From a phage, in the sequence record PZ445487.1: a stretch of 64,000 nt of DNA. One strand, 5' to 3'. This document shows, in pieces, positions 11,776-62,670 of the stretch. Within the stretch, counting starts at the first letter, position 1; the number at the start of each line of letters is the position of its first letter. The notes beneath the pieces were generated by a model. It ran no database searches and had not been told where the DNA came from. It saw only the letters and a list, made by a program, of their open reading frames with translations. Position numbers and translations under genes: made by a program.

Positions 11776-14109
11776 ATGAACAATGTAGACCTATTATCAA
11801 AATTTGGTTCGCTGTTGAAAGAAGCGGACACTCCTGTTTCTGTTGAAGTACCATTTGAAATTCGTGGGGAAATTACCCACAAACTGACTTTCCATCGCGG
11901 TCGCGCTAAAAACTTCCGTTCTATCGGTAATGAATTCATGGAAATTGATTACCAACGCAATTCGGCAACCTTGGTTACATCCGATGACAATGGCGCTGGT
12001 AAATCCACCATGCTTGTCTGGCTGCTGTTCTTCGTTCTGTATAATGACACATATAGCAAGAAAGAAAAGAAAGCCGGATTAGTCAATTCCCAAAACAAAA
12101 AGGAATGCGTGGGTGAAGTTGAGTTCTCCACTCGAGGAAGTGAATGGAAAGTCCGTCGTGGTATCAAACCTGATTTCGTAGAAGTCTATCAGATGGTAGA
12201 CGGTGAGTGGAAGCAGGTCGTGAATGATGCGGCCAAAGCCGACATGAACAAATATATTGTGAACCTGATTGGCGTAGACCAGAAGATGTTTGAGAACTCC
12301 CTGGTTCTAGGCAAAGAGAAGTTCATCCCATTCACGGAAATGTACACTGCCGACCGTCGCGCTATGGTAGAGACAATCTGGGATTTGGGGTTCTTCAGTC
12401 TGATGAATGAAGATGTAAAAGCATCTATCAAGACAGTAACGAATGAACTCACGACGGTCACCAATGATTACGCCTTTCATGATGTAAATTTAAAAGGCCA
12501 GCAAGCGCAGTTGGAACAGATCAATAATTCCAATGCGATGATCCAGCAACAATCTGCGGATATCCTTGTCCAAGAGAAGGAACGTCTGAATAGCCTGAAT
12601 TCAGATATCAACGCAGTGCAGGAACAACTGACAGAGTCCCGTGCTCAAGACTCTAAATTGGAATCAGAATTATCAGAAGTCCGTAATCGCCTGAACGCTG
12701 AAATGAAGGTGGATATCGATTCCATCAATGACGAGTATTTTGCCAAAATTCAAGCGGTTCAGGATGAGGCTGATACCAAGGCTGAAGACTATGAGCGTAT
12801 CGAGGTGTCTGATGGCGAACGTTCATTACAAGAAATTCGGGAGAGAATGGCGGTAGTCGCGGAACGTAAAAATGATCTGGTTAGCCAACGGAATGCTAAC
12901 CTGGATGAACTGAACAAAGCATTAGCGCGGCGTCAGCAGGGTGAGAACTTCCGTATCAAATTCGTAACAGAAATGGAAGGACATGAATCTGCCATCAAAC
13001 GTTTCCACGATATGGGCACTTGCCCTACGTGTACGCAATTAGTGTCGGACGATACCAAATCACGCATTGAAAGTCAATATTATCCACAAATCAGTGAACT
13101 GACTGACAAGATTCTTCAGGTTGATACAGCCCTAGAAGAAGTGAATTCCCTGATTGAGAATTACAATGTCAGAGATTCAGAATTATCTTCTCAGATTTCG
13201 GTTATTGACAAAGAACTGGATGCTTTGCGCAATGAAATTCGAGAAGCGGAATCGGCGATCGCTACATTAAAACGCGACATCCAAGGTTTCTACGAAGTTG
13301 CGGCGGTTGAGAAAACATCTTTACAGCGGGAACAACAGTCCAAAATTAACGACGTCCTCAAGGCCGTAGACACCCGTTACGAAGATATCACGACGTCAAT
13401 CCGTCAAGCCCGTGAGCAGCTCTCTAAGAGTATCAACGACACGGCTGATAAACTCACCAGCCTGAAATCACTCCGTGCCCCTCTGGAGGCATCCATTGCT
13501 GATTTAGAGCGTAAATTGGCGGTTAAGCCGACACCAACTGACGCCCTGGAAGAAGAGATCGCTCGCATCACGGCATTAATGGAAGATCTGAATGCGCGGC
13601 GCGTAGAGTTGGATGAGAAATTGCAAGACCTGAACCATCTTCTGTTCTTCCTAAAAGATGATCAGACCAAGGCTCGAATTATCAGTCTGTATTTGCCTTT
13701 CCTCAATAGTAAAATAAACGAGTATCTTGAAGCACTCAATATGTTCTTGGATATTGCTGTTGATGATACATTTGAAATCACCATGAGCGCTGCTGGTCGT
13801 AAAGGGCAAAGCATATTCTCCCTGTCTACAGGACAACGCAGCCGACTCAATCTGGCTGTGACATTAGCCCTACGGGACGTCGCTAACCTGAAGGCGTCTG
13901 TACAATGTAACCTCTTCGTGTTGGATGAGATACTCGAAAACATGAGTGAGCGAGGGGTTCAAGAATCCATCGAGATGCTGAAACATAAATTTGGTGGGAA
14001 CAATCTGTTTGTCATCAGTCAGCGTGAGCAGGAGTTCCAAGAATATTTCCAACATAACATTCGTTATGGTCTGCGTAATGGCATGACCGAAGTGATTAAG
14101 AAGGATTGA
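11776..14109 (+). CDS. 46: recombination endonuclease subunit gp46 (Rad50/SbcC-like ATPase)
   Basis: Walker A NGAGKST, long coiled-coil middle, C-terminal LSTGQRS signature-like and DE box. Confidence 0.85.
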   Translation: MNNVDLLSKFGSLLKEADTPVSVEVPFEIRGEITHKLTFHRGRAKNFRSIGNEFMEIDYQRNSATLVTSDDNGAGKSTMLVWLLFFVLYNDTYSKKEKKAGLVNSQNKKECVGEVEFSTRGSEWKVRRGIKPDFVEVYQMVDGEWKQVVNDAAKADMNKYIVNLIGVDQKMFENSLVLGKEKFIPFTEMYTADRRAMVETIWDLGFFSLMNEDVKASIKTVTNELTTVTNDYAFHDVNLKGQQAQLEQINNSNAMIQQQSADILVQEKERLNSLNSDINAVQEQLTESRAQDSKLESELSEVRNRLNAEMKVDIDSINDEYFAKIQAVQDEADTKAEDYERIEVSDGERSLQEIRERMAVVAERKNDLVSQRNANLDELNKALARRQQGENFRIKFVTEMEGHESAIKRFHDMGTCPTCTQLVSDDTKSRIESQYYPQISELTDKILQVDTALEEVNSLIENYNVRDSELSSQISVIDKELDALRNEIREAESAIATLKRDIQGFYEVAAVEKTSLQREQQSKINDVLKAVDTRYEDITTSIRQAREQLSKSINDTADKLTSLKSLRAPLEASIADLERKLAVKPTPTDALEEEIARITALMEDLNARRVELDEKLQDLNHLLFFLKDDQTKARIISLYLPFLNSKINEYLEALNMFLDIAVDDTFEITMSAAGRKGQSIFSLSTGQRSRLNLAVTLALRDVANLKASVQCNLFVLDEILENMSERGVQESIEMLKHKFGGNNLFVISQREQEFQEYFQHNIRYGLRNGMTEVIKKD

Positions 14110-40797: not shown

Positions 40798-40825
40798 TTT
40801 AATTCAGAAGCGTTCAATAGATAAA

Positions 40826-40857
40826 GGGGCTGCTATAATAGCAGCTCCTTTTGTTTA
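40826..40857 (+). terminator. rho-independent terminator
   Basis: Imperfect hairpin GGGCTGCT..AGCAGCTCC followed by TTTTGTTT. Confidence 0.5.
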
Positions 40858-40869
40858 TTGGAGCATGTC

Positions 40870-41532
40870 ATGTCTTATTCGCTCAAAGGGCTGTTGAAGC
40901 GCCCTGTGCATTTGTTTGTCAAACCACCTGCTGTAGAAAGGGAATATTCGGCACGAGGAGAGTTGTATTACATTAAAGGCTCCAATGGTAGTGGTAAGTC
41001 TACTGTGCCTTCTTATTTGGCGGAGAATGATCCTCAGGCGTATGTCGTAACCCACAACAGTAAGATCATGCTCACGGTTTGTCCATCTTATAATATTGTC
41101 TGTGTCGGTAAATATGACAAGTCTAAGTCCAAAGGGGTTGATTCTCTGAAGGATACTGAGCAGATGTTGTTCGCGTTGTCTATTGCTGACCAACCAGAAT
41201 ACCTGAAATATGATGTGATTTTCGAAGGCATCATTCCGTCTACATTATTGAGTTCTTGGATTCCCCGCCTGACACGCCCACCACGTGAATTGGTCGTCCT
41301 CTTTATGGATACCCCTCTTGAAACCTGTATTGCCCGTGTTAAATCGCGTAACGGTGGCGCAGACTTCAATGAAAGTCTGGTGGTCGAGAAGTGGGAGAGA
41401 GTTCATGATCACCGTCAACGGCATAAAGGCTTGTTCCCTACCGTTCCCGCAGGTATGATGAAGTCCGATGGCCTGACTGTAGAGCAGGCTGTTTTTGCGT
41501 TTCTCAATCGTGATTTTGGGAGTATTTATTGA
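40870..41532 (+). CDS. P-loop kinase (candidate 5-hydroxymethyl-dU DNA kinase)
   Basis: Walker A GSNGSGKST; internal ATG with GGAG RBS; stop overlaps hydroxymethylase start (TGATG). Confidence 0.5.
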   Translation: MSYSLKGLLKRPVHLFVKPPAVEREYSARGELYYIKGSNGSGKSTVPSYLAENDPQAYVVTHNSKIMLTVCPSYNIVCVGKYDKSKSKGVDSLKDTEQMLFALSIADQPEYLKYDVIFEGIIPSTLLSSWIPRLTRPPRELVVLFMDTPLETCIARVKSRNGGADFNESLVVEKWERVHDHRQRHKGLFPTVPAGMMKSDGLTVEQAVFAFLNRDFGSIY

Positions 41533-42578
41533 TGGAAATCAAAGCAATTAACAACAACGACATGCTGAAACAGGCTGTCTTGGCTATCCGTGAGCACGGG
41601 ATTGAATCTGACCCTGGTAACGCGGAGATCAACACAGACGGCACTCGTTTTATTGATGGCGTGACGATCACCGTCTCTGACATCCGCGACCGTTGGCTGT
41701 CTGTTGAAGGACGCAACTCATCGGCTATTGCTGCCATCGGCGAGACCTTCTGGGTTCTGTCTGGGCGCGATGATGTGCGCTTCTTGTCCCGTGTCCTCCC
41801 TCGCGCCGCCAACTTCTCTGATAATGGCCATACATGGCGAGCCGCTTATGGTCCGCGTCTGTACGCCCATGGCCAGCTGGATAGCGTTATCAACCGCCTA
41901 CGCAAGAACCCAAATACTCGTCAAGCGTACCTCACCATCTATGATCCGGCTCTAGATTCGGATGCTGGTCTGGCGAAGTTCAGCGAGAGCGGCGAAGCAA
42001 AGACTAAGGACATGGTGTGTAACCTGGCTCTGTTGTTCGCCATCGTTGAAGGTCGTCTGAACCTGACGGTCATCAACCGCTCACAGGATGTTCTGTGGGG
42101 GATGAGTTCAATCAACTTCATTGAGTTCTCTATTCTTCAGGAAGTGATTGCTCAGGTGTTAGATGTTGATGTCGGTCAGTACAAGCTATTCTCTAACAAT
42201 CTTCATTACTACAACAATGAAGTCAGCCAGAAGCAGCTTGGCAAGATCACCAAAGACACAAAAGTCACTGGTGGTTTCATCAACTCCATGATCTACTTCA
42301 CGAACGTGACCAACCAGAACCATATCCGCAATCTGTTCACTGGTGTGCTTCATCACTGTGATATCGGCAGCCCGTGGGAAACTGTTGTCGCTCACCTGAA
42401 GGAGTACGGCGCGGATCGCGGCCTGATCGTGCAGATGGCGTACTGCCTGTACTGCAAACTGAACGACAAGCTCATCAACATGAACCTGATTCAGGATCAT
42501 GGTTTGAACATCGCGCTCGCCCATTCTCCGATTGACCGCAAGATCGTTGATCCCAAGTTCTTGGAAGGTGCAGTATGA
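41532..42578 (+). CDS. thymidylate-synthase-like pyrimidine hydroxymethylase (candidate dUMP hydroxymethylase)
   Basis: ThyA-fold motifs (VCN catalytic-Cys region, RSQDVLWGMSSINFIEFSILQEVIAQ, NNLHYYNN) with Asn at the base-specificity position. Confidence 0.65.
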   Translation: MEIKAINNNDMLKQAVLAIREHGIESDPGNAEINTDGTRFIDGVTITVSDIRDRWLSVEGRNSSAIAAIGETFWVLSGRDDVRFLSRVLPRAANFSDNGHTWRAAYGPRLYAHGQLDSVINRLRKNPNTRQAYLTIYDPALDSDAGLAKFSESGEAKTKDMVCNLALLFAIVEGRLNLTVINRSQDVLWGMSSINFIEFSILQEVIAQVLDVDVGQYKLFSNNLHYYNNEVSQKQLGKITKDTKVTGGFINSMIYFTNVTNQNHIRNLFTGVLHHCDIGSPWETVVAHLKEYGADRGLIVQMAYCLYCKLNDKLINMNLIQDHGLNIALAHSPIDRKIVDPKFLEGAV

Positions 42579-43144
42579 TGTATCCGAACCTTGAATTCTT
42601 TACGGGGCGCAAGCGCTCCGGCAAGGACTTCTGTTTGGAGTCCCTCATCAGCTATCACCATTTACAGGGTGATATGGACATCCAGCGCTTATCTTTCTCA
42701 GACGAGTTGCGTCGGGTGGCTCATTACATCTATCCTTGGTTGCCAGAGGAAGTAGAGGACGATATCAAGGACTTGCCATATGTTCACCCAGATAACCCCA
42801 AGGGATTAACTCCAAGGCAGATCTGGCTTCATCTCGGCAGCGATACGGGGCTTCGTTATGTCCAACCGGATCTGTTTTTGTCTTTCTTTAAGCGTTACCA
42901 ACTCCCATTAGTTGAACAGAATCCTAACATTCATTATATTGTGAGTGATCTACGGACGCCTCAAGAATATGAATGGGCGCTGAGCACTAAATGTCCCATC
43001 ACCCGCATTTCAAAGGCAGATCGCGGCGGTATCATAGAGGACGACATAGAGGCTTTCATTGATGAGATGAAAGTTGATTATGAATTTGTTAACCCATTTG
43101 AAGGTTGGCAACCATTCGTCAAATTTTATAGGGAACGGAAATGA
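42575..43144 (+). CDS. 1: deoxynucleoside monophosphate kinase (T4 gene 1-like)
   Basis: P-loop GRKRSGKD as in T4 dNMP kinase; ATGATG overlap with upstream gene. Confidence 0.6.
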   Translation: MMYPNLEFFTGRKRSGKDFCLESLISYHHLQGDMDIQRLSFSDELRRVAHYIYPWLPEEVEDDIKDLPYVHPDNPKGLTPRQIWLHLGSDTGLRYVQPDLFLSFFKRYQLPLVEQNPNIHYIVSDLRTPQEYEWALSTKCPITRISKADRGGIIEDDIEAFIDEMKVDYEFVNPFEGWQPFVKFYRERK

Positions 43145-43686
43145 TCACAGCAGAGCATATCAAAAGTCTGCTCGAACTTCAAAAGGCCACCAACGTGGCC
43201 TATTTTGGGGAAGAGTGGCGTAAACATTGGACTCATGTGGCGGTGGTGAACTCCATCTATCGTGAGTGGGCAGAGTTCCTTGACGAAGTTTCGACCAGTT
43301 GGAAAATCTACGGCAATGACCAGCAATGGCACCAAGTCAATGCGGTTTACGAATTGGTCGATGTCGTCCACTTCATGCTGTGTGCCGTTATACAAAAAGA
43401 AGCGGAGCCGCATGATATGTACGACATGACGGGTTATGTGTCTGATCAACCTATTCAGAGAAAGCCAGATTTCCTCCATGTGACAAATCTGTTTACGCAT
43501 TTTATGTCTCATCCAGAGCGCAATGTGCTGGCTGCTTTCCTTGCGTATGCTTGTGGTTATTTGGGACTGGATGCCGAAACCTACATGCTGGCGCACAAGC
43601 GCAAGAACGATCGCAATCGTCTACGTGCTGCTGGCGGTGCGAACTATGACAAGTCTGCCGAAACCCCTCTGACTCTGGAGTTCTAA
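43141..43686 (+). CDS. all-alpha NTP pyrophosphohydrolase (MazG/dUTPase-dCTPase-like, putative)
   Basis: EW.EF.DE ... ELVDVVHF pattern resembling MazG-like NTP-PPase; coupled in operon. Confidence 0.45.
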   Translation: MITAEHIKSLLELQKATNVAYFGEEWRKHWTHVAVVNSIYREWAEFLDEVSTSWKIYGNDQQWHQVNAVYELVDVVHFMLCAVIQKEAEPHDMYDMTGYVSDQPIQRKPDFLHVTNLFTHFMSHPERNVLAAFLAYACGYLGLDAETYMLAHKRKNDRNRLRAAGGANYDKSAETPLTLEF

Positions 43687-44216
43687 TGTTTACAGTCGTC
43701 GTATCATATTATGCGGAACATGCCCCGTACATGGCAGAGAACTTCGCTGAGTTTATTAAACCAGGCGGTCATGTCGTTATTGCGACCAATTTCAAGAAAG
43801 GGCCAAATGGTGCGGCTACTGTAACACAACATATTACAACACCAGAGCCGGAAACACTTTTTAAACGCATTGAAGATTTTGCTTTTGGCGGGGAAGAAAT
43901 TCCAGAGTCATTGCAGCATATCTATTTTGAAGATGCGATATATTATGTTCATGCTATTCCAAAGGATGTTACAACTGAACAAATGATGTATATCCTGAAT
44001 ATCGCATTGAATGTTTCTTGTGTCAACAGGGCACAGCACAATCGTCTGCGTAATATGTATTTAACAGAACGCGGGGGTTCCGAAATTAACGATGAAAAAC
44101 TCCCGTCAATAATGGCGATTCACGAAGCAATCAATATATTGTCCAAGAAAGTCTTGGGCACCGATTTATTAATTACGATCAACAAGCAAGAGGAAACGAA
44201 ATGGCCGATTCATTGA
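43686..44216 (+). CDS. hypothetical protein
   Basis: ORF track; ATG overlaps upstream stop. Confidence 0.5.
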   Translation: MFTVVVSYYAEHAPYMAENFAEFIKPGGHVVIATNFKKGPNGAATVTQHITTPEPETLFKRIEDFAFGGEEIPESLQHIYFEDAIYYVHAIPKDVTTEQMMYILNIALNVSCVNRAQHNRLRNMYLTERGGSEINDEKLPSIMAIHEAINILSKKVLGTDLLITINKQEETKWPIH

Positions 44217-45286
44217 TGGCTCGCATGCTCAAGACAGCAAAGAAACTGGACCCGAATGCCGAAGTGCTGTCAAAGACCGATGCGCTGAAGCCTGACATTA
44301 TTTGCAGTACGGGTATTCCTATTCTGAATTTGGCCTGGTCCGGTCGTATTGATGGTGGTCTGATATCAGGCATCAAACAGTTGGTGGGGGATTCTCGTAC
44401 ATTCAAAACCATGTTTGGGCTGGTGGATGTTAAGGCTTACATGGATAAGTTTCCTGATGCAATTTGTATCTTCGCGGATTCAGAAGGCGGTGCGAATGAA
44501 AACTACTGGACATCTATGGGTATTGACATGGACCGTGTCTTGTATCTGCCGATTGAAAACGTTGAAAAGACGAAGATCAAGCTGACACAGCTTCTGAATG
44601 ATGCTCAGAAAGGTGACAAGATCATCGTATTCATTGACTCAATCAGCCAGTTGCCGTCTACCAAAGAAGTTGATGATGCCATCGCGGGCAAAGACACACA
44701 AGATATGACCCGCGCTCGCGCTCTCAATAGTTTTTGGCGTGTTATCACCCCGTTGGTCACTGAAAAGAAATTCGTTTTGGTATGGATCAACTCGTACTAT
44801 GATGAAATCGGGAACCAATACGCCGAGCCGAACATCAAAGGCGGTAAACAGGGGTTCCTGTCTTCTAACCAATTGTGGTTCATCACGCGTTCTCAAGTTA
44901 AAGAAGACAAAGACCTTTTGGGATGGCAGTTTACAGTCAACATTATGAAAGGCCGCTTTGTCCGTGAAAAAGCCAAGTTCCCTGTCACTGTGTTGTATGA
45001 AGGCGGTATTGACCGTTGGTCCGGTATGTTAGAAATTGCGCGCATGCTGGGGTATGTGGATTTGGTGAGTGGTTCTTGGTATCAACGCACTGCCAAAGGC
45101 GGGTTTGATCCAGAAAAAGAAAAGAAATATCGTAAGGCAGAGCTGGGGGATGACTTCTGGTATCCGCTGCTGGAAAACCCAGACTTTGTTGACGATGTGA
45201 ACAACATGTTCGGTATCTCTCAGAGTTCGGTTATGCCTGCAGATATGCTGGAGCGCCTCGATAATGTCATCAAAACAACCGAGTAA
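44201..45286 (+). CDS. uvsX: RecA-like recombinase UvsX
   Basis: Similarity by eye to T4 UvsX (SGRIDGGL, DAICIFADSE, VVFIDSIS, GWQFTVNI.KGRFV.EK.KF); RBS GAGGAA. Confidence 0.85.
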   Translation: MADSLMARMLKTAKKLDPNAEVLSKTDALKPDIICSTGIPILNLAWSGRIDGGLISGIKQLVGDSRTFKTMFGLVDVKAYMDKFPDAICIFADSEGGANENYWTSMGIDMDRVLYLPIENVEKTKIKLTQLLNDAQKGDKIIVFIDSISQLPSTKEVDDAIAGKDTQDMTRARALNSFWRVITPLVTEKKFVLVWINSYYDEIGNQYAEPNIKGGKQGFLSSNQLWFITRSQVKEDKDLLGWQFTVNIMKGRFVREKAKFPVTVLYEGGIDRWSGMLEIARMLGYVDLVSGSWYQRTAKGGFDPEKEKKYRKAELGDDFWYPLLENPDFVDDVNNMFGISQSSVMPADMLERLDNVIKTTE

Positions 45287-45593
45287 TATTGCAGGGGGAG
45301 GAGACTCCCCCGTTAATTACAAAATCATCGACCCTGGTTCTGATCAGTTAGCAATAATCGAAATAACGGAAGGCAAATTCCGTGGCGTTCAATTTCGTAT
45401 AGGGAAAGTGGGTGTCCATTTAGATAATGGAGAGCCTCGGTTATCCTTTACAACAGATATATTGAAGAAACCATGGCGTTTGTTATTTGTTAATTTGAAA
45501 GAAAATGACTTGTTCACTGTGGTGTCTGGGGATATCTTAGTTGATCTGATACAGCAAAATGCTCAGGATTACAACAAAATTTTGGTGGGGTAG
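45264..45593 (+). CDS. hypothetical protein
   Basis: ORF track; overlaps uvsX 3' end. Confidence 0.4.
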   Translation: MSSKQPSNIAGGGDSPVNYKIIDPGSDQLAIIEITEGKFRGVQFRIGKVGVHLDNGEPRLSFTTDILKKPWRLLFVNLKENDLFTVVSGDILVDLIQQNAQDYNKILVG

Positions 45594-47852: not shown

Positions 47853-49046
47853 ATGAAAGCCAAGACCTTCAGCATCCCAATTGATAACATTGGTCGTGTC
47901 AAGGAACGTCTTGCCAAACTTGAAAGAACGGCAAACCGCCTGAAACTCGAGTTCCCTCTTGTTGAGTTCAGTGAACCATACAAAACACAACACCGCGATT
48001 CTATCACTGGCGAAAAATTTTATCGTTGGTGGCAAGATTGTACTCTAACTGGTGAAGGCATCGACCGCCCCGTTTCTTATGGTGGGTGGAGTATCATTGG
48101 ACAATTCAACCACCAGTATCCAAAAGTCATTCTGAATAAACTGTCAGATGACATCCACCCAAATTTCGTTCAAAGATTTGAAGCTGAAAACGTATCTTGG
48201 TGCGAGCATTGCAACAAATCTGTGCGTCGTCATAACACATATGTCGTTCGTAACGAACAATCTGGCGCACAGATGCTCGTGGGTAGCAGCTGTATGCATC
48301 ATTATGTCCCGCATCAGAAATCCCTTGATGCGGTTATGTCTTATTACATGTCTATTCACGAAATGTTTACCCCCGATGAAGATGACCCAGAAGGGATTTA
48401 TCGGGTTAATGAACCAGATTATGTTGACACAGAAGGATATTTGTGTAAATGCTTTCAGGTTTTGCTGTCGGGCATGAGCATTAAAAGTGATGATTTTGGT
48501 CGAGTTCTTGGTCATATCTCTAGCGGGACTCGTCCGGAGAAAGGTTCTGACATTGATATATTCTATAACAAGGCTGTTAAAGCCCGTGAAGATGCTCAAT
48601 CAGAGATGTATCATATGATGCTTTTCATCGCATCGTTGTCTGAAAATAACGATTTCAACGTCCGGCTGAAACGTATGTGCGAACCTGGTTATCACCTTGT
48701 TAAAGACTCAACAACAGTTCGTTGGGGAGCAGCAAAGTATTATGATTATATCCACACCCCCCGCCAAACGCGCACTGTATCAAATTGGGTTGGTGAAGTT
48801 GGTGAAATGTTAGAAGCACAGGTCAAATTTGAAGCAAGGATTTTCCTGTATTCATCTGATTATGGTGACACGTATCTGTATACTTTCAAAACCAAGGAAG
48901 GCAATACCATTACATGGAAGACTTCCTATATGGAAACCGAGTTTTTAGAAGGCGATATGATCATTCGAGGTCGTGTCAAAGAATTGACCGAATTCAAAGG
49001 TATTAAACAAACTCAGATTACAAGGGCAAAACTGAGGAAATTATGA
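47853..49046 (+). CDS. hypothetical protein with internal Cys/His cluster
   Basis: ORF track; early promoter 47782-47810; CEHC...SSCMHHY. Confidence 0.55.
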   Translation: MKAKTFSIPIDNIGRVKERLAKLERTANRLKLEFPLVEFSEPYKTQHRDSITGEKFYRWWQDCTLTGEGIDRPVSYGGWSIIGQFNHQYPKVILNKLSDDIHPNFVQRFEAENVSWCEHCNKSVRRHNTYVVRNEQSGAQMLVGSSCMHHYVPHQKSLDAVMSYYMSIHEMFTPDEDDPEGIYRVNEPDYVDTEGYLCKCFQVLLSGMSIKSDDFGRVLGHISSGTRPEKGSDIDIFYNKAVKAREDAQSEMYHMMLFIASLSENNDFNVRLKRMCEPGYHLVKDSTTVRWGAAKYYDYIHTPRQTRTVSNWVGEVGEMLEAQVKFEARIFLYSSDYGDTYLYTFKTKEGNTITWKTSYMETEFLEGDMIIRGRVKELTEFKGIKQTQITRAKLRKL

Positions 49047-59537: not shown

Positions 59538-60059
59538 TTAATTCCTTACTTTGTCTGGGTTGGATAAGATTTGTTCGTATCCGACTTCGCCTTGATCGTC
59601 GAAAACGTGTTTAAGGATTGCCATATCTCCCACCATCCGGTAAACTTCAATTCCGGAGTTCATCAATCTTTTGATTCCATCCATGATACGATATGGCTCT
59701 TGATAATATACTTTATCGATCTTGCCATTGTCGATGATTTTCTGAGTGCAATCAGGGCATGGGCTATGTGTCACAAACATAACCAACCCTGTGAAATCAT
59801 CTGCATTTTCGGGGATACGCATTAGAGCATTTTCCTCCGCATGAATGACACACGGGTTTGTAACAATTTGCCCGTGTTGTTCCATCTCACAAACATTCGG
59901 CATGCCAGGAGGCGTTCCGTTCCATCCGATAGCCACAGGCTGATCAGTTTCAGGGTTTACGATAACACAACCGACTTGCAGACGCCGAGCATAACTGGTT
60001 ACACCATATGCTGCAGCTGATCGCATATGGGCGAACATCATACGTGGTTTGATAGCCAT
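59538..60059 (-). CDS. cd: dCMP deaminase
   Basis: Zinc-binding HAEENAL and HSPCPDC motifs of cytidine/dCMP deaminase family. Confidence 0.8.
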   Translation of the reverse strand: MAIKPRMMFAHMRSAAAYGVTSYARRLQVGCVIVNPETDQPVAIGWNGTPPGMPNVCEMEQHGQIVTNPCVIHAEENALMRIPENADDFTGLVMFVTHSPCPDCTQKIIDNGKIDKVYYQEPYRIMDGIKRLMNSGIEVYRMVGDMAILKHVFDDQGEVGYEQILSNPDKVRN

Positions 60060-62007: not shown

Positions 62008-62670
62008 CTATGATAACTCATGGCGATGTCGAACACAGGCAGGGCAATCACAATTCTTTTTCAAAATTGGCAATTCACACCATGTCATTAAGTCATGTAT
62101 TGGGGACATGTGATGATAGAACCAAGATTTCTTGAGACTAATCAATGGATATAAAATTTCAATAGATCTTTCCCCGTCTCTGGTCATCATGTTGTATCCT
62201 TCAATAACTTTATTAAAGGCGGGTATCCAGTGTATTGCGTCATCGCCGTTAACATATGCCAAGATATACGTGGGTGGCAAGCCACTGCCTTTAAATTGCG
62301 TGTTTAATAACCATATCGGGGCTTGTGCTAAACAAGCGCGAAAACCACCGTTCGGGACGTTGATGCTACTGATAGGTTCTTGATGATGTGTCCAACGATA
62401 CATGAGAAGTGGGGCATTTTTATTAATCCAGTTGTATATTTTATTCCTCGCCCAATTTTCGCGTTTAGATTTAAATTTATTATTTTCGAGGTGGCAATAC
62501 ACAGTATGAACTGAATATCCTTTCGATAGCAACCAAATCAACATGTATGTGCTATCCACCCCACCAGACCAGAACAACGTCACTTCTTGATTATTCTGCG
62601 GCAATGGAGCATCCCCTTGAAGAACACGGTATACAAAATCACAATCAGATATTGAGACAACAATTTCCAT
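62008..62670 (-). CDS. QueC-like PP-loop ATPase (7-cyano-7-deazaguanine synthase family, putative)
   Basis: PP-loop SGGVDS near N-terminus and C-terminal zinc motif C..(9)..CDCPACVRH resembling QueC CxxCPAC..R. Confidence 0.55.
   Translation of the reverse strand: MEIVVSISDCDFVYRVLQGDAPLPQNNQEVTLFWSGGVDSTYMLIWLLSKGYSVHTVYCHLENNKFKSKRENWARNKIYNWINKNAPLLMYRWTHHQEPISSINVPNGGFRACLAQAPIWLLNTQFKGSGLPPTYILAYVNGDDAIHWIPAFNKVIEGYNMMTRDGERSIEILYPLISLKKSWFYHHMSPIHDLMTWCELPILKKNCDCPACVRHRHELS

Follow-up and report, generated by a model that had tools for sequence, protein, structure and literature searches.

A coupled gene cluster in a Kuttervirus genome corresponds to the published thymidine-hypermodification genes of phage CBA120

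The closest described counterpart of the locus reported here is that of Salmonella phage ViI (Vi01), whose thymidine-hypermodification pathway has been reconstituted (Lee 2021, PMC8989533). That work identified gp67 and gp243 as kinases (5-HMUDK), with activity on 5-hmdU DNA demonstrated for gp67, gp247 as the serine transferase and gp226 as the decarboxylase; the remaining ViI parts are a ThyA-like protein (gp66), gp65 (dnk) and a dUTPase-like protein (gp63). By LC-MS, the base 5-NeOmdU occupies about 40% of thymidines in the DNA of ViI-like phages, CBA120 included, and the CBA120 virion nucleoside (m/z 302.1, 301 Da) has the same retention time as ViI 5-NeOmdU; the origin of the canonical thymidine at the other ~60% of positions was left unexplained in that study (Lee 2018). 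The later work reports that the virion DNA of ViI-like phages contains no 5-hmdU, and states that CBA120 'natively synthesizes 5-NeOmdU' (Lee 2021, PMC8989533). For CBA120 itself, it had been found that 3H-thymidine is not incorporated; a dUMP hydroxymethylase role was proposed for orf073, which clusters with dUMP hydroxymethylases, and a putative dTTPase role for the protein that we call ORF4 (Kutter 2011, PMC3184105).

Three further groups of phages provide more distant comparisons. The hmU pathway of Bacillus phage SPO1 follows the same pre-replicative logic, with a dUMP hydroxymethylase (gp29), a dNMP kinase, a dUTPase/dTTPase and a dCMP deaminase; like the ThyA-fold protein of our locus (ORF2, below), gp29 has a Cys-Asn dipeptide, an Asn at the specificity position and a long extension at its C-terminus. 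In SPO1, unlike CBA120, 5-hmdU is the end point and fully replaces T; the phage lacks a 5-HMUDK, a transferase and a decarboxylase, and served as the non-hypermodifying comparator in Lee 2018. The hydroxymethyl-dC pathway of T4 uses the same trio of enzymes (gp56 dCTPase/dUTPase, gp42 dCMP hydroxymethylase and gp1 dNMP kinase), but acts on cytosine rather than uracil, with Asp179 in gp42 where ORF2 has Asn195, and after replication T4 DNA is glucosylated, whereas that of CBA120 is phosphorylated and receives an amino acid. Pseudomonas phage M6 (5-NedU) and Delftia phage PhiW-14 (putrescinyl-T) share with CBA120 the strategy of pairing 5-HMUDK with an aGPT-Pplase2/ADDT enzyme, and in these systems too 5-HMUDK is found in association with a dUMP hydroxymethylase; homologues of ORF2 with about 31% identity occur in several Pseudomonas siphophages. 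The appended groups and the tailoring enzymes differ from those of CBA120, with a radical SAM isomerase in M6 and putrescine transfer in PhiW-14, and the tightly clustered genes of M6 contrast with those of CBA120, which are spread across four or more loci.

The stretch of phage DNA analysed here, referred to as the window, spans 64,000 nucleotides and differs from the Cba120 RefSeq genome at two of these, both far from the cluster; across positions 40870-43686 the megablast match to Escherichia phage Cba120 (Kuttervirus) is 100%. This segment contains the published CBA120 thymidine-hypermodification genes, and the first-pass annotation, which read a hydroxymethyl-dU-type hypermodification operon from the letters, was correct in its inference and not new. 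The segment almost certainly represents the pre-replicative half of the published ViI-like 5-NeOmdU pathway of CBA120, together with the enzyme that acts first after replication. ViI and CBA120 share the gene order gp67-thyA-dnk-dUTPase, the orthologues are 77-95% identical, the hairpin upstream is retained and the end product is the same by LC-MS (Lee 2018); the two differ in allelic detail only, most strongly in the C-terminal extension of ORF2. The cluster is conserved in 267 phage records.

Four plus-strand reading frames make up the segment, at 40870-41532, 41532-42578, 42575-43144 and 43141-43686, and their boundaries match those of the RefSeq coding sequences orf074, orf073, orf072 and orf070. 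The stop/start overlaps described for them can be read directly in the sequence, as TGATG at 41530-41534 (1 nt), ATGATG at 42575-42580 (ATGA, 4 nt) and ATGA at 43141-43144, and the motifs on which their identification was based are likewise all present (GSNGSGKST at residues 37-45 of ORF1, VCN around C163-N164 and INFIEF around N195 in ORF2, and GRKRSGKD in ORF3). While the four coupled frames are real, the chain does not end with them: it continues through ORF5 (43686-44216), uvsX (44201-45286) and orf067 (45264-45593) with overlaps of 1, 16 and 23 nt, giving seven genes with six consecutive overlaps. Overlapping junctions are common in this genome, accounting for 19 of the 54 same-strand junctions (35%) in the surrounding 42.8 kb, and for this reason three in a row are statistically unremarkable; the six in a row found here exceed every other run within that region. 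A terminator-like site at 48309-48333 was considered as the end of the operon and rejected, as it lies inside orf061.

The first gene of the cluster, ORF1 (orf074, 40870-41532, plus strand), encodes a P-loop protein that had been linked to 5-hmdU DNA kinases by its position, which is that of such kinases in characterised thymidine-hypermodifying phages. Profile and orthology evidence now points the same way: ORF1 matches the Pfam family PF18748 (HMUDK_HMUD1) over the full length of the profile (1-196 of 196), scoring 375.7 bits where the threshold is 27 (E=5.2e-113), carries the Walker A motif noted above, and is 94% identical over 219 amino acids to the active ViI kinase gp67. By orthology, ORF1 would thus be expected to phosphorylate 5-hmdU in DNA to 5-PmdU in an ATP-dependent manner. 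A search of PDB sequences with ORF1 gave nothing significant (best E=0.27). The RefSeq product name of this gene is 'terminase small subunit', and ORF1 does match phrog_800, which carries the same label, with E=1.8e-68; on this reading the protein would have a role in packaging and no part in base modification. However, the phrog_800 match is limited to positions 4-220 of a profile with 511 columns, the full-length PF18748 match, the Walker A motif and the identity to gp67 all speak for a kinase, and the Cba120 genome has a separate small terminase gene, orf200, immediately upstream of that for the large subunit. The probability that ORF1 is a small terminase subunit is therefore negligible, and the label in RefSeq and phrog_800 is a misannotation.

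ORF2 (orf073, 41532-42578, plus strand) was predicted to be a hydroxymethylase of the dUMP rather than the dCMP type, converting dUMP to 5-hmdUMP. It has a ThyA fold, with a match to Pfam Thymidylat_synt of 59.3 bits (cutoff 24.3, E=4e-16), and in the alignment with E. coli ThyA its residues C163, R183, S184 and D186 correspond to C146, R166, S167 and D169, and H225, Y227, Y106 and E71 to H207, Y209, Y94 and E58. At the pyrimidine-specificity position N195 corresponds to N177 of E. coli ThyA and N194 of SPO1 gp29, where T4 gp42 has D179, and the Cys-Asn dipeptide C163-N164 is common to ORF2 and gp29. The comparison with T4 relies on multiple alignment and PHROGs, because BLAST returned no match between ORF2 and gp42. 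ORF2 is 33% identical to SPO1 gp29 (E=4.6e-32) and 22% identical to E. coli ThyA (6e-14), its second-best PHROG is phrog_5131, the home of gp29, and its best match in the PDB is the CMP 5-hydroxymethylase MilA (E=5.5e-17), with true thymidylate synthases at 3e-9 or weaker. ORF2 is nearer to SPO1 gene 29 and the homologues in M6-like phages than to phage thymidylate synthases.

Is ORF2 nevertheless an ordinary thymidylate synthase, and the cluster a routine source of dTTP? Its RefSeq product name is 'thymidylate synthase', the Pfam match lies above the gathering score, every ThyA residue needed for covalent catalysis is retained, and the canonical thymidine that occupies about 60% of thymidine sites in virions (Lee 2018) would suit such an enzyme. 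Against this, ORF2 falls below all seven NCBIfam thymidylate synthase equivalog cutoffs, which range from 108 to 427 bits, its best score being 56.5 where 327 is required; SPO1 gp29 lies closer to it than ThyA does, and MilA closer than any solved thymidylate synthase; and in the alignment ORF2 lacks the ThyA C-terminus, H147 and an equivalent of W80. The failure of CBA120 to incorporate 3H-thymidine (PMC3184105) also argues against this reading, as does the presence in its DNA of a base derived from 5-hmdU (Lee 2018), for which a source of 5-hmdU is needed. We regard a routine thymidylate synthase as very unlikely. The dUMP-type hydroxymethylase predicted by the first-pass annotation is upheld by the Cys and Asn at the C146 and N177 positions, by the proximity to gp29 and MilA and by the failure to reach the equivalog cutoffs; ORF2 thus probably makes 5-hmdUMP rather than dTMP, although hydroxymethylase and methylase chemistry cannot be separated by sequence alone. 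A bifunctional ORF2 that makes both dTMP and 5-hmdUMP was considered as an explanation for the 60:40 ratio of the two bases and rejected as unlikely, because 3H-thymidine supplied from outside feeds the same dTMP pool and yet is not incorporated (PMC3184105). At its C-terminus ORF2 carries a variable extension, about 110 amino acids long, that is 41-55% identical to that of ViI, compared with 77% for the protein as a whole, and that has diverged far more than either the catalytic core or the genes on either side.

The next two genes would supply and process the nucleotides on either side of this reaction. ORF3 (orf072, 42575-43144, plus strand) was described as a dNMP kinase like T4 gene 1, and the two proteins do share a family, with ORF3 (E=7.6e-49) and T4 gp1 (E=1.8e-65) both matching phrog_139 and their P-loops aligning as TGRKRSGKD and SGVKRSGKD. 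Pairwise BLAST between them is confined to 21 amino acids around the P-loop (E=0.003), and a PDB sequence search with ORF3 yielded no significant match (best E=0.19). ORF3 is 91% identical to ViI gp65 'dnk', and its substrate may be 5-hmdUMP, which it would convert to 5-hmdUDP. ORF4 (orf070, 43141-43686, plus strand), first described as an all-alpha NTP pyrophosphatase, belongs to the all-alpha dimeric-dUTPase or T4 gp56 family of NTP pyrophosphohydrolases: it shares phrog_173 with T4 gp56 (E=1.7e-41 for ORF4), its match to PF08761 (dUTPase_2) scores 44.7 bits, above the threshold of 22.9, and its only PDB matches are dimeric dUTPases, the best being that of Campylobacter (1w2y, E=0.004). Its score against the NCBIfam dUTPase equivalog is far under the cutoff, at 27.8 against 300 bits. 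A plausible function for ORF4 is the removal of dUTP, and possibly dTTP, with the supply of dUMP. The dCMP deaminase that was predicted at 59538-60059 as a source of dUMP is real (orf037; PF00383, E=5.3e-17; 95% identity to its ViI counterpart), but it is encoded on the minus strand, and the plus-strand translation of this interval has stop codons.

The first-pass annotation found no transferase for the final group and left two explanations, that the enzyme lies outside the window or that the modification is a variant not yet described. The window indeed encodes none, and a search of the rest of the Cba120 genome located the ADDT transferase orf248 and the PLP enzyme orf228, together with the second kinase, orf243 (HMUD2), and orf156 (HMUDK_hel), with profile matches of E=1.9e-57 for ADDT, 1.8e-149 for HMUD2 and 1.6e-83 for HMUDK_hel. 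The PALP-fold protein is 94% identical to the ViI decarboxylase gp226 and the serine transferase orthologue 86% identical to its ViI counterpart. Cba120 thus has the full ViI-type gene set, with the hydroxymethylase and 5-HMUDK inside the window and ADDT/aGPT-Pplase2 and the PLP decarboxylase outside it. A hypermodification unlike any described could draw on the missing transferase in the window and on the divergence of ORF2 and its extension from ViI. These orthologues stand against it, however, as do the retention time and 301-Da mass that the CBA120 nucleoside shares with ViI 5-NeOmdU (Lee 2018); the second explanation fails on this point, and we consider a novel modification exceedingly unlikely. 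The opposite proposal, that CBA120 DNA carries 5-hmdU with nothing added to it, goes back to the restriction patterns from which further modification was judged unlikely (Kutter 2011, PMC3184105). The LC-MS detection of 5-NeOmdU in this DNA (Lee 2018), the reported lack of 5-hmdU in the virion DNA of these phages (Lee 2021, PMC8989533) and the complete set of post-replicative enzymes encoded in Cba120 leave it with practically no likelihood.

Our analysis, coupled with these published data, suggests a model for the synthesis of 5-NeOmdU in CBA120. On grounds of homology and the lack of 3H-thymidine incorporation, we propose that the dCMP deaminase (59538-60059, minus strand) and ORF4 would supply dUMP, with ORF4 perhaps also destroying dUTP and dTTP; that ORF2 would convert dUMP and methylene-tetrahydrofolate to 5-hmdUMP; and that ORF3 would form 5-hmdUDP, which a host NDP kinase would raise to the triphosphate, allowing the phage polymerase to place 5-hmdU in DNA in the positions of T. 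On the DNA, ORF1 and a paralogous kinase encoded elsewhere would phosphorylate the hydroxymethyl group, the serine:DNA transferase orf248 would then produce O-serinyl-T, and the PLP decarboxylase orf228 would yield 5-(2-aminoethoxy)methyl-dU at roughly 40% of thymidine sites, with plain T in the end at the others. These post-replicative steps have been shown with the ViI orthologues, and the end product in CBA120 virions.

As a discovery the cluster carries little weight, since the literature already covers the phage and its genes, the modified base and the greater part of the enzymology (Kutter 2011; Lee 2018, 2021); the first reading does demonstrate that a real hypermodification pathway can be recovered from raw sequence. 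The practical value lies in annotation: RefSeq and PHROG 800 call a proven family of 5-hmdU DNA kinases 'terminase small subunit', a probable dUMP hydroxymethylase goes under 'thymidylate synthase', and both labels have spread over hundreds of Ackermannviridae genomes.

Beyond the four genes, ORF5 (orf069, 43686-44216, plus strand) is coupled to ORF4 through TAATG and encodes an ACT-like, Ackermannviridae-specific protein (Pfam PF24021 ACT_phage, E=3.6e-86; phrog_3839, of unknown function). Judged by organism names, the 270 phage records with ORF5 come from practically the same enterobacterial phages that carry the cluster, and in the annotated records among those listed it adjoins a dUTPase-like gene and/or uvsX. 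A role for ORF5 or for the C-terminal extension of ORF2 in carrying out or regulating the conversion of 5-hmdU to T, or the 40:60 partition, might be suggested by translational coupling and lineage restriction, but we consider it very improbable.

Upstream of the cluster, between orf076 and ORF1, a hairpin followed by a T-run (40815-40860, plus strand) resembles an intrinsic terminator. Its 13-bp stem lies at 40823-40851, and the predicted RNA fold of -26.8 kcal/mol (z = -6.2) was equalled by none of 200 shuffled sequences. A sigma-70 promoter scan, whose totals barely exceed those of shuffled sequence (22 against 15.3 +/- 3.9), placed no site between orf076 and ORF1. The core hairpin and the downstream T-run are identical upstream of ViI gp67, and we interpret the element as a putative terminator or promoter. 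Within the hairpin, an extended -10-like candidate, TGCTATAAT, picked out by eye, lies at 40831-40839.

The four plus-strand genes of the cluster (ORF1 to ORF4) are 100% identical by megablast to those of Escherichia phage Cba120 (NC_016570/JN593240), a ViI-like Kuttervirus of the Ackermannviridae, and the window is the reverse complement of positions 14302-78301 of the Cba120 record apart from two substitutions, at 13472 and 22070, both well away from the cluster. The first is a T in the window against a G in NC_016570, within a gp46-like recombination endonuclease gene; the second, A against C, is intergenic (orf104/orf105). Megablast finds the cluster kept in 267 phage records, with Salmonella, Klebsiella, Escherichia, Dickeya and others as hosts. 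The first-pass annotation read these genes as a coupled operon for hydroxymethyl-dU-type DNA hypermodification; that observation is confirmed and its interpretation is supported, and the system is already known in exactly this phage. For the family, the pathway is taken as settled in a 2024 review and in a 2026 preprint.

The product of ORF1 (orf074, 40870-41532), a P-loop protein assigned as a 5-hmdU DNA kinase (5-HMUDK), matches Pfam PF18748, '5-hmdU DNA kinase', over its full length (375.7 bits, E=5e-113) and is 94% identical to gp67 of Salmonella phage ViI. Kinase activity has been demonstrated for ViI gp67 and gp243 (Lee et al. 2021, PMC8989533), and CBA120 is among the 5-HMUDK phages, in which the kinase co-associates with a hydroxymethylase gene (Lee et al. 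2018, PMC5889632). RefSeq and PHROG 800 instead call ORF1 a 'terminase small subunit'; several independent results contradict this reading, and the label is wrong because the genome carries a separate small terminase, orf200, adjoining the large terminase outside the window. The same label stands on the ORF1 orthologue in many Ackermannviridae records among those listed. Directly 5' of ORF1 lies a very stable hairpin with a T-run (40815-40860; -26.8 kcal/mol, z = -6.2), whose core and T-run are unchanged in ViI. An extended -10-like sequence, TGCTATAAT, falls within its loop and 3' arm, and the element may serve as a terminator, a promoter or both.

ORF2 (orf073, 41532-42578) matches the thymidylate-synthase fold in Pfam, but several independent results contradict the alternative of an ordinary thymidylate synthase. 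With no more than 56.5 bits, ORF2 scores far short of each of the seven NCBIfam thymidylate-synthase equivalog cutoffs (108-427). Its best solved relative in a PDB sequence search is the CMP 5-hydroxymethylase MilA (E=5.5e-17), with true thymidylate synthases at 3e-9 or weaker, and in the phage collection SPO1 gene 29, titled 'gene for deoxyuridylate hydroxymethylase' in its record, and Pseudomonas siphophage homologues match far better than T4-like td genes. In a five-way alignment ORF2 residues C163, R183, S184, D186, H225, Y227, Y106 and E71 correspond to E. coli C146, R166, S167, D169, H207, Y209, Y94 and E58. The specificity residue N195 corresponds to E. coli N177 and SPO1 N194, where T4 dCMP hydroxymethylase has D179, and a Cys-Asn dipeptide (C163-N164) is common to ORF2 and SPO1 gp29. 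The residue-level claims made previously, an altered Cys context and Asn at the pyrimidine-specificity position, are thus correct. Taken together, the failed cutoffs, the nearest relatives and N195 support a dUMP-type hydroxymethylase, as Kutter et al. (2011, PMC3184105) argued for orf073, which they related to the PhiW-14, SPO1 and YuA enzymes; they also reported that CBA120 does not incorporate 3H-thymidine.

The remaining two genes are probably a T4 gene 1-like dNMP kinase and an all-alpha NTP pyrophosphatase, as first predicted. ORF3 (orf072, 42575-43144) shares phrog_139 with T4 gp1 and has the same GxKRSGKD P-loop, to which its direct pairwise similarity to gp1 is limited. ORF4 (orf070, 43141-43686) belongs to Pfam dUTPase_2, shares phrog_173 with T4 gp56, and has dimeric all-alpha dUTPases as its sole PDB sequence matches. 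Kutter et al. (2011, PMC3184105) noted a dNMP kinase and suggested that the dUTPase acts on dTTP as well. Their naming of orf070 as the dNMP kinase is a minor labelling slip, as PHROG and Pfam assign that function to orf072 and a dUTPase-like pyrophosphatase to orf070. Pfam bears out the predicted dCMP deaminase at 59538-60059, but the gene is on the minus strand, not the plus strand as had been implied.

No transferase had been recognised within the window, and it was suggested either that one lay outside or that the modification was a variant not yet described. We searched the complete Cba120 genome for counterparts of the ViI hypermodification proteins that Lee et al. had named. The serine:DNA transferase gp247 has an orthologue in orf248 (86% identity; Pfam ADDT, 'amino acid:DNA transferase', E=1.9e-57), the PLP decarboxylase gp226 in orf228 (94%; a sub-threshold PALP match), the second kinase gp243 in orf243 (87%; HMUD2, E=1.8e-149) and gp160 in orf156 (78%; HMUDK_hel, E=1.6e-83). 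All four lie outside the window, which holds no paralogues of gp247, gp226, gp243 or gp160. The genome-wide search for partners yielded both transferase and PLP orthologues, and the first suggestion holds. Several independent results contradict an undescribed variant, and the same is true of 5-hmdU without further modification.

The gp160 orthologue (Cba120 record 85690-87834; HMUDK_hel is the '5-hmdU DNA kinase, helical domain') adjoins a 'MazG-like pyrophosphatase', also outside the window, which has no Pfam match at E<=1e-3. A minus-strand 'QueC-like queuosine biosynthesis' gene (62008-62670) shows no more than a weak PP-loop match at its N terminus (QueC 23.5 bits, ThiI 20.9 bits) and is probably a generic PP-loop ATPase; the annotation contains no further 7-deazaguanine genes.

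These assignments suggest a model in which the dCMP deaminase and ORF4 would supply dUMP, which ORF2 would hydroxymethylate; ORF3 and host NDP kinase would then yield 5-hmdUTP for incorporation by the phage polymerase. These steps, which precede replication, are inferred from homology together with the 3H-thymidine result. In DNA, 5-hmdU would be phosphorylated by ORF1 and orf243, after which orf248 would add serine and orf228 decarboxylate it to give 5-(2-aminoethoxy)methyl-dU (5-NeOmdU). This end product has been shown in CBA120, and the post-replicative steps have been shown with the ViI orthologues, 86-94% identical; transfer of serine by gp247 and decarboxylation by gp226 were demonstrated for ViI (Lee et al. 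2021, PMC8989533). The other ~60% of positions become plain T (Lee et al. 2018).

The boundaries of ORF1 to ORF4 agree with the RefSeq CDS, and their stop/start overlaps read as reported (TGATG at 41530-41534, ATGATG at 42575-42580, ATGA at 43141-43144). The proposed operon does not end at ORF4, but continues on the plus strand through the ACT-like ORF5 (orf069, 43686-44216; TAATG junction with ORF4), uvsX (44201-45286) and orf067 (45264-45593), giving seven genes joined by six consecutive overlaps; a gp41-like helicase begins 6 nt further on. A run of three overlaps is unremarkable because overlaps are common in the Cba120 genome: of the 54 same-strand junctions in the 42.8 kb around the cluster, 19 overlap. 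No run in that region is longer than this one of six.

Beyond the correction of annotation, the remaining value of this analysis lies in two unexplained features: ORF5 as part of the coupled chain, and the C-terminal extension of ORF2, which is hypervariable. ORF5 (PF24021, phrog_3839), translationally coupled to the dUTPase-like gene, occurs in 270 phage records; judged by organism name, these are essentially the ones that carry the cluster. It adjoins the dUTPase-like gene and/or uvsX among the annotated records listed. The ORF2 extension (residues 241-348; 42250-42578) is only 41-55% identical to ViI, against 82-95% for the catalytic core and 86-94% for neighbouring genes, and may be a hotspot of recombination or diversification. 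By identity, the ORF2 matches in phage records form two main groups, 102 records at 90% or more and 168 records at 60-80%.
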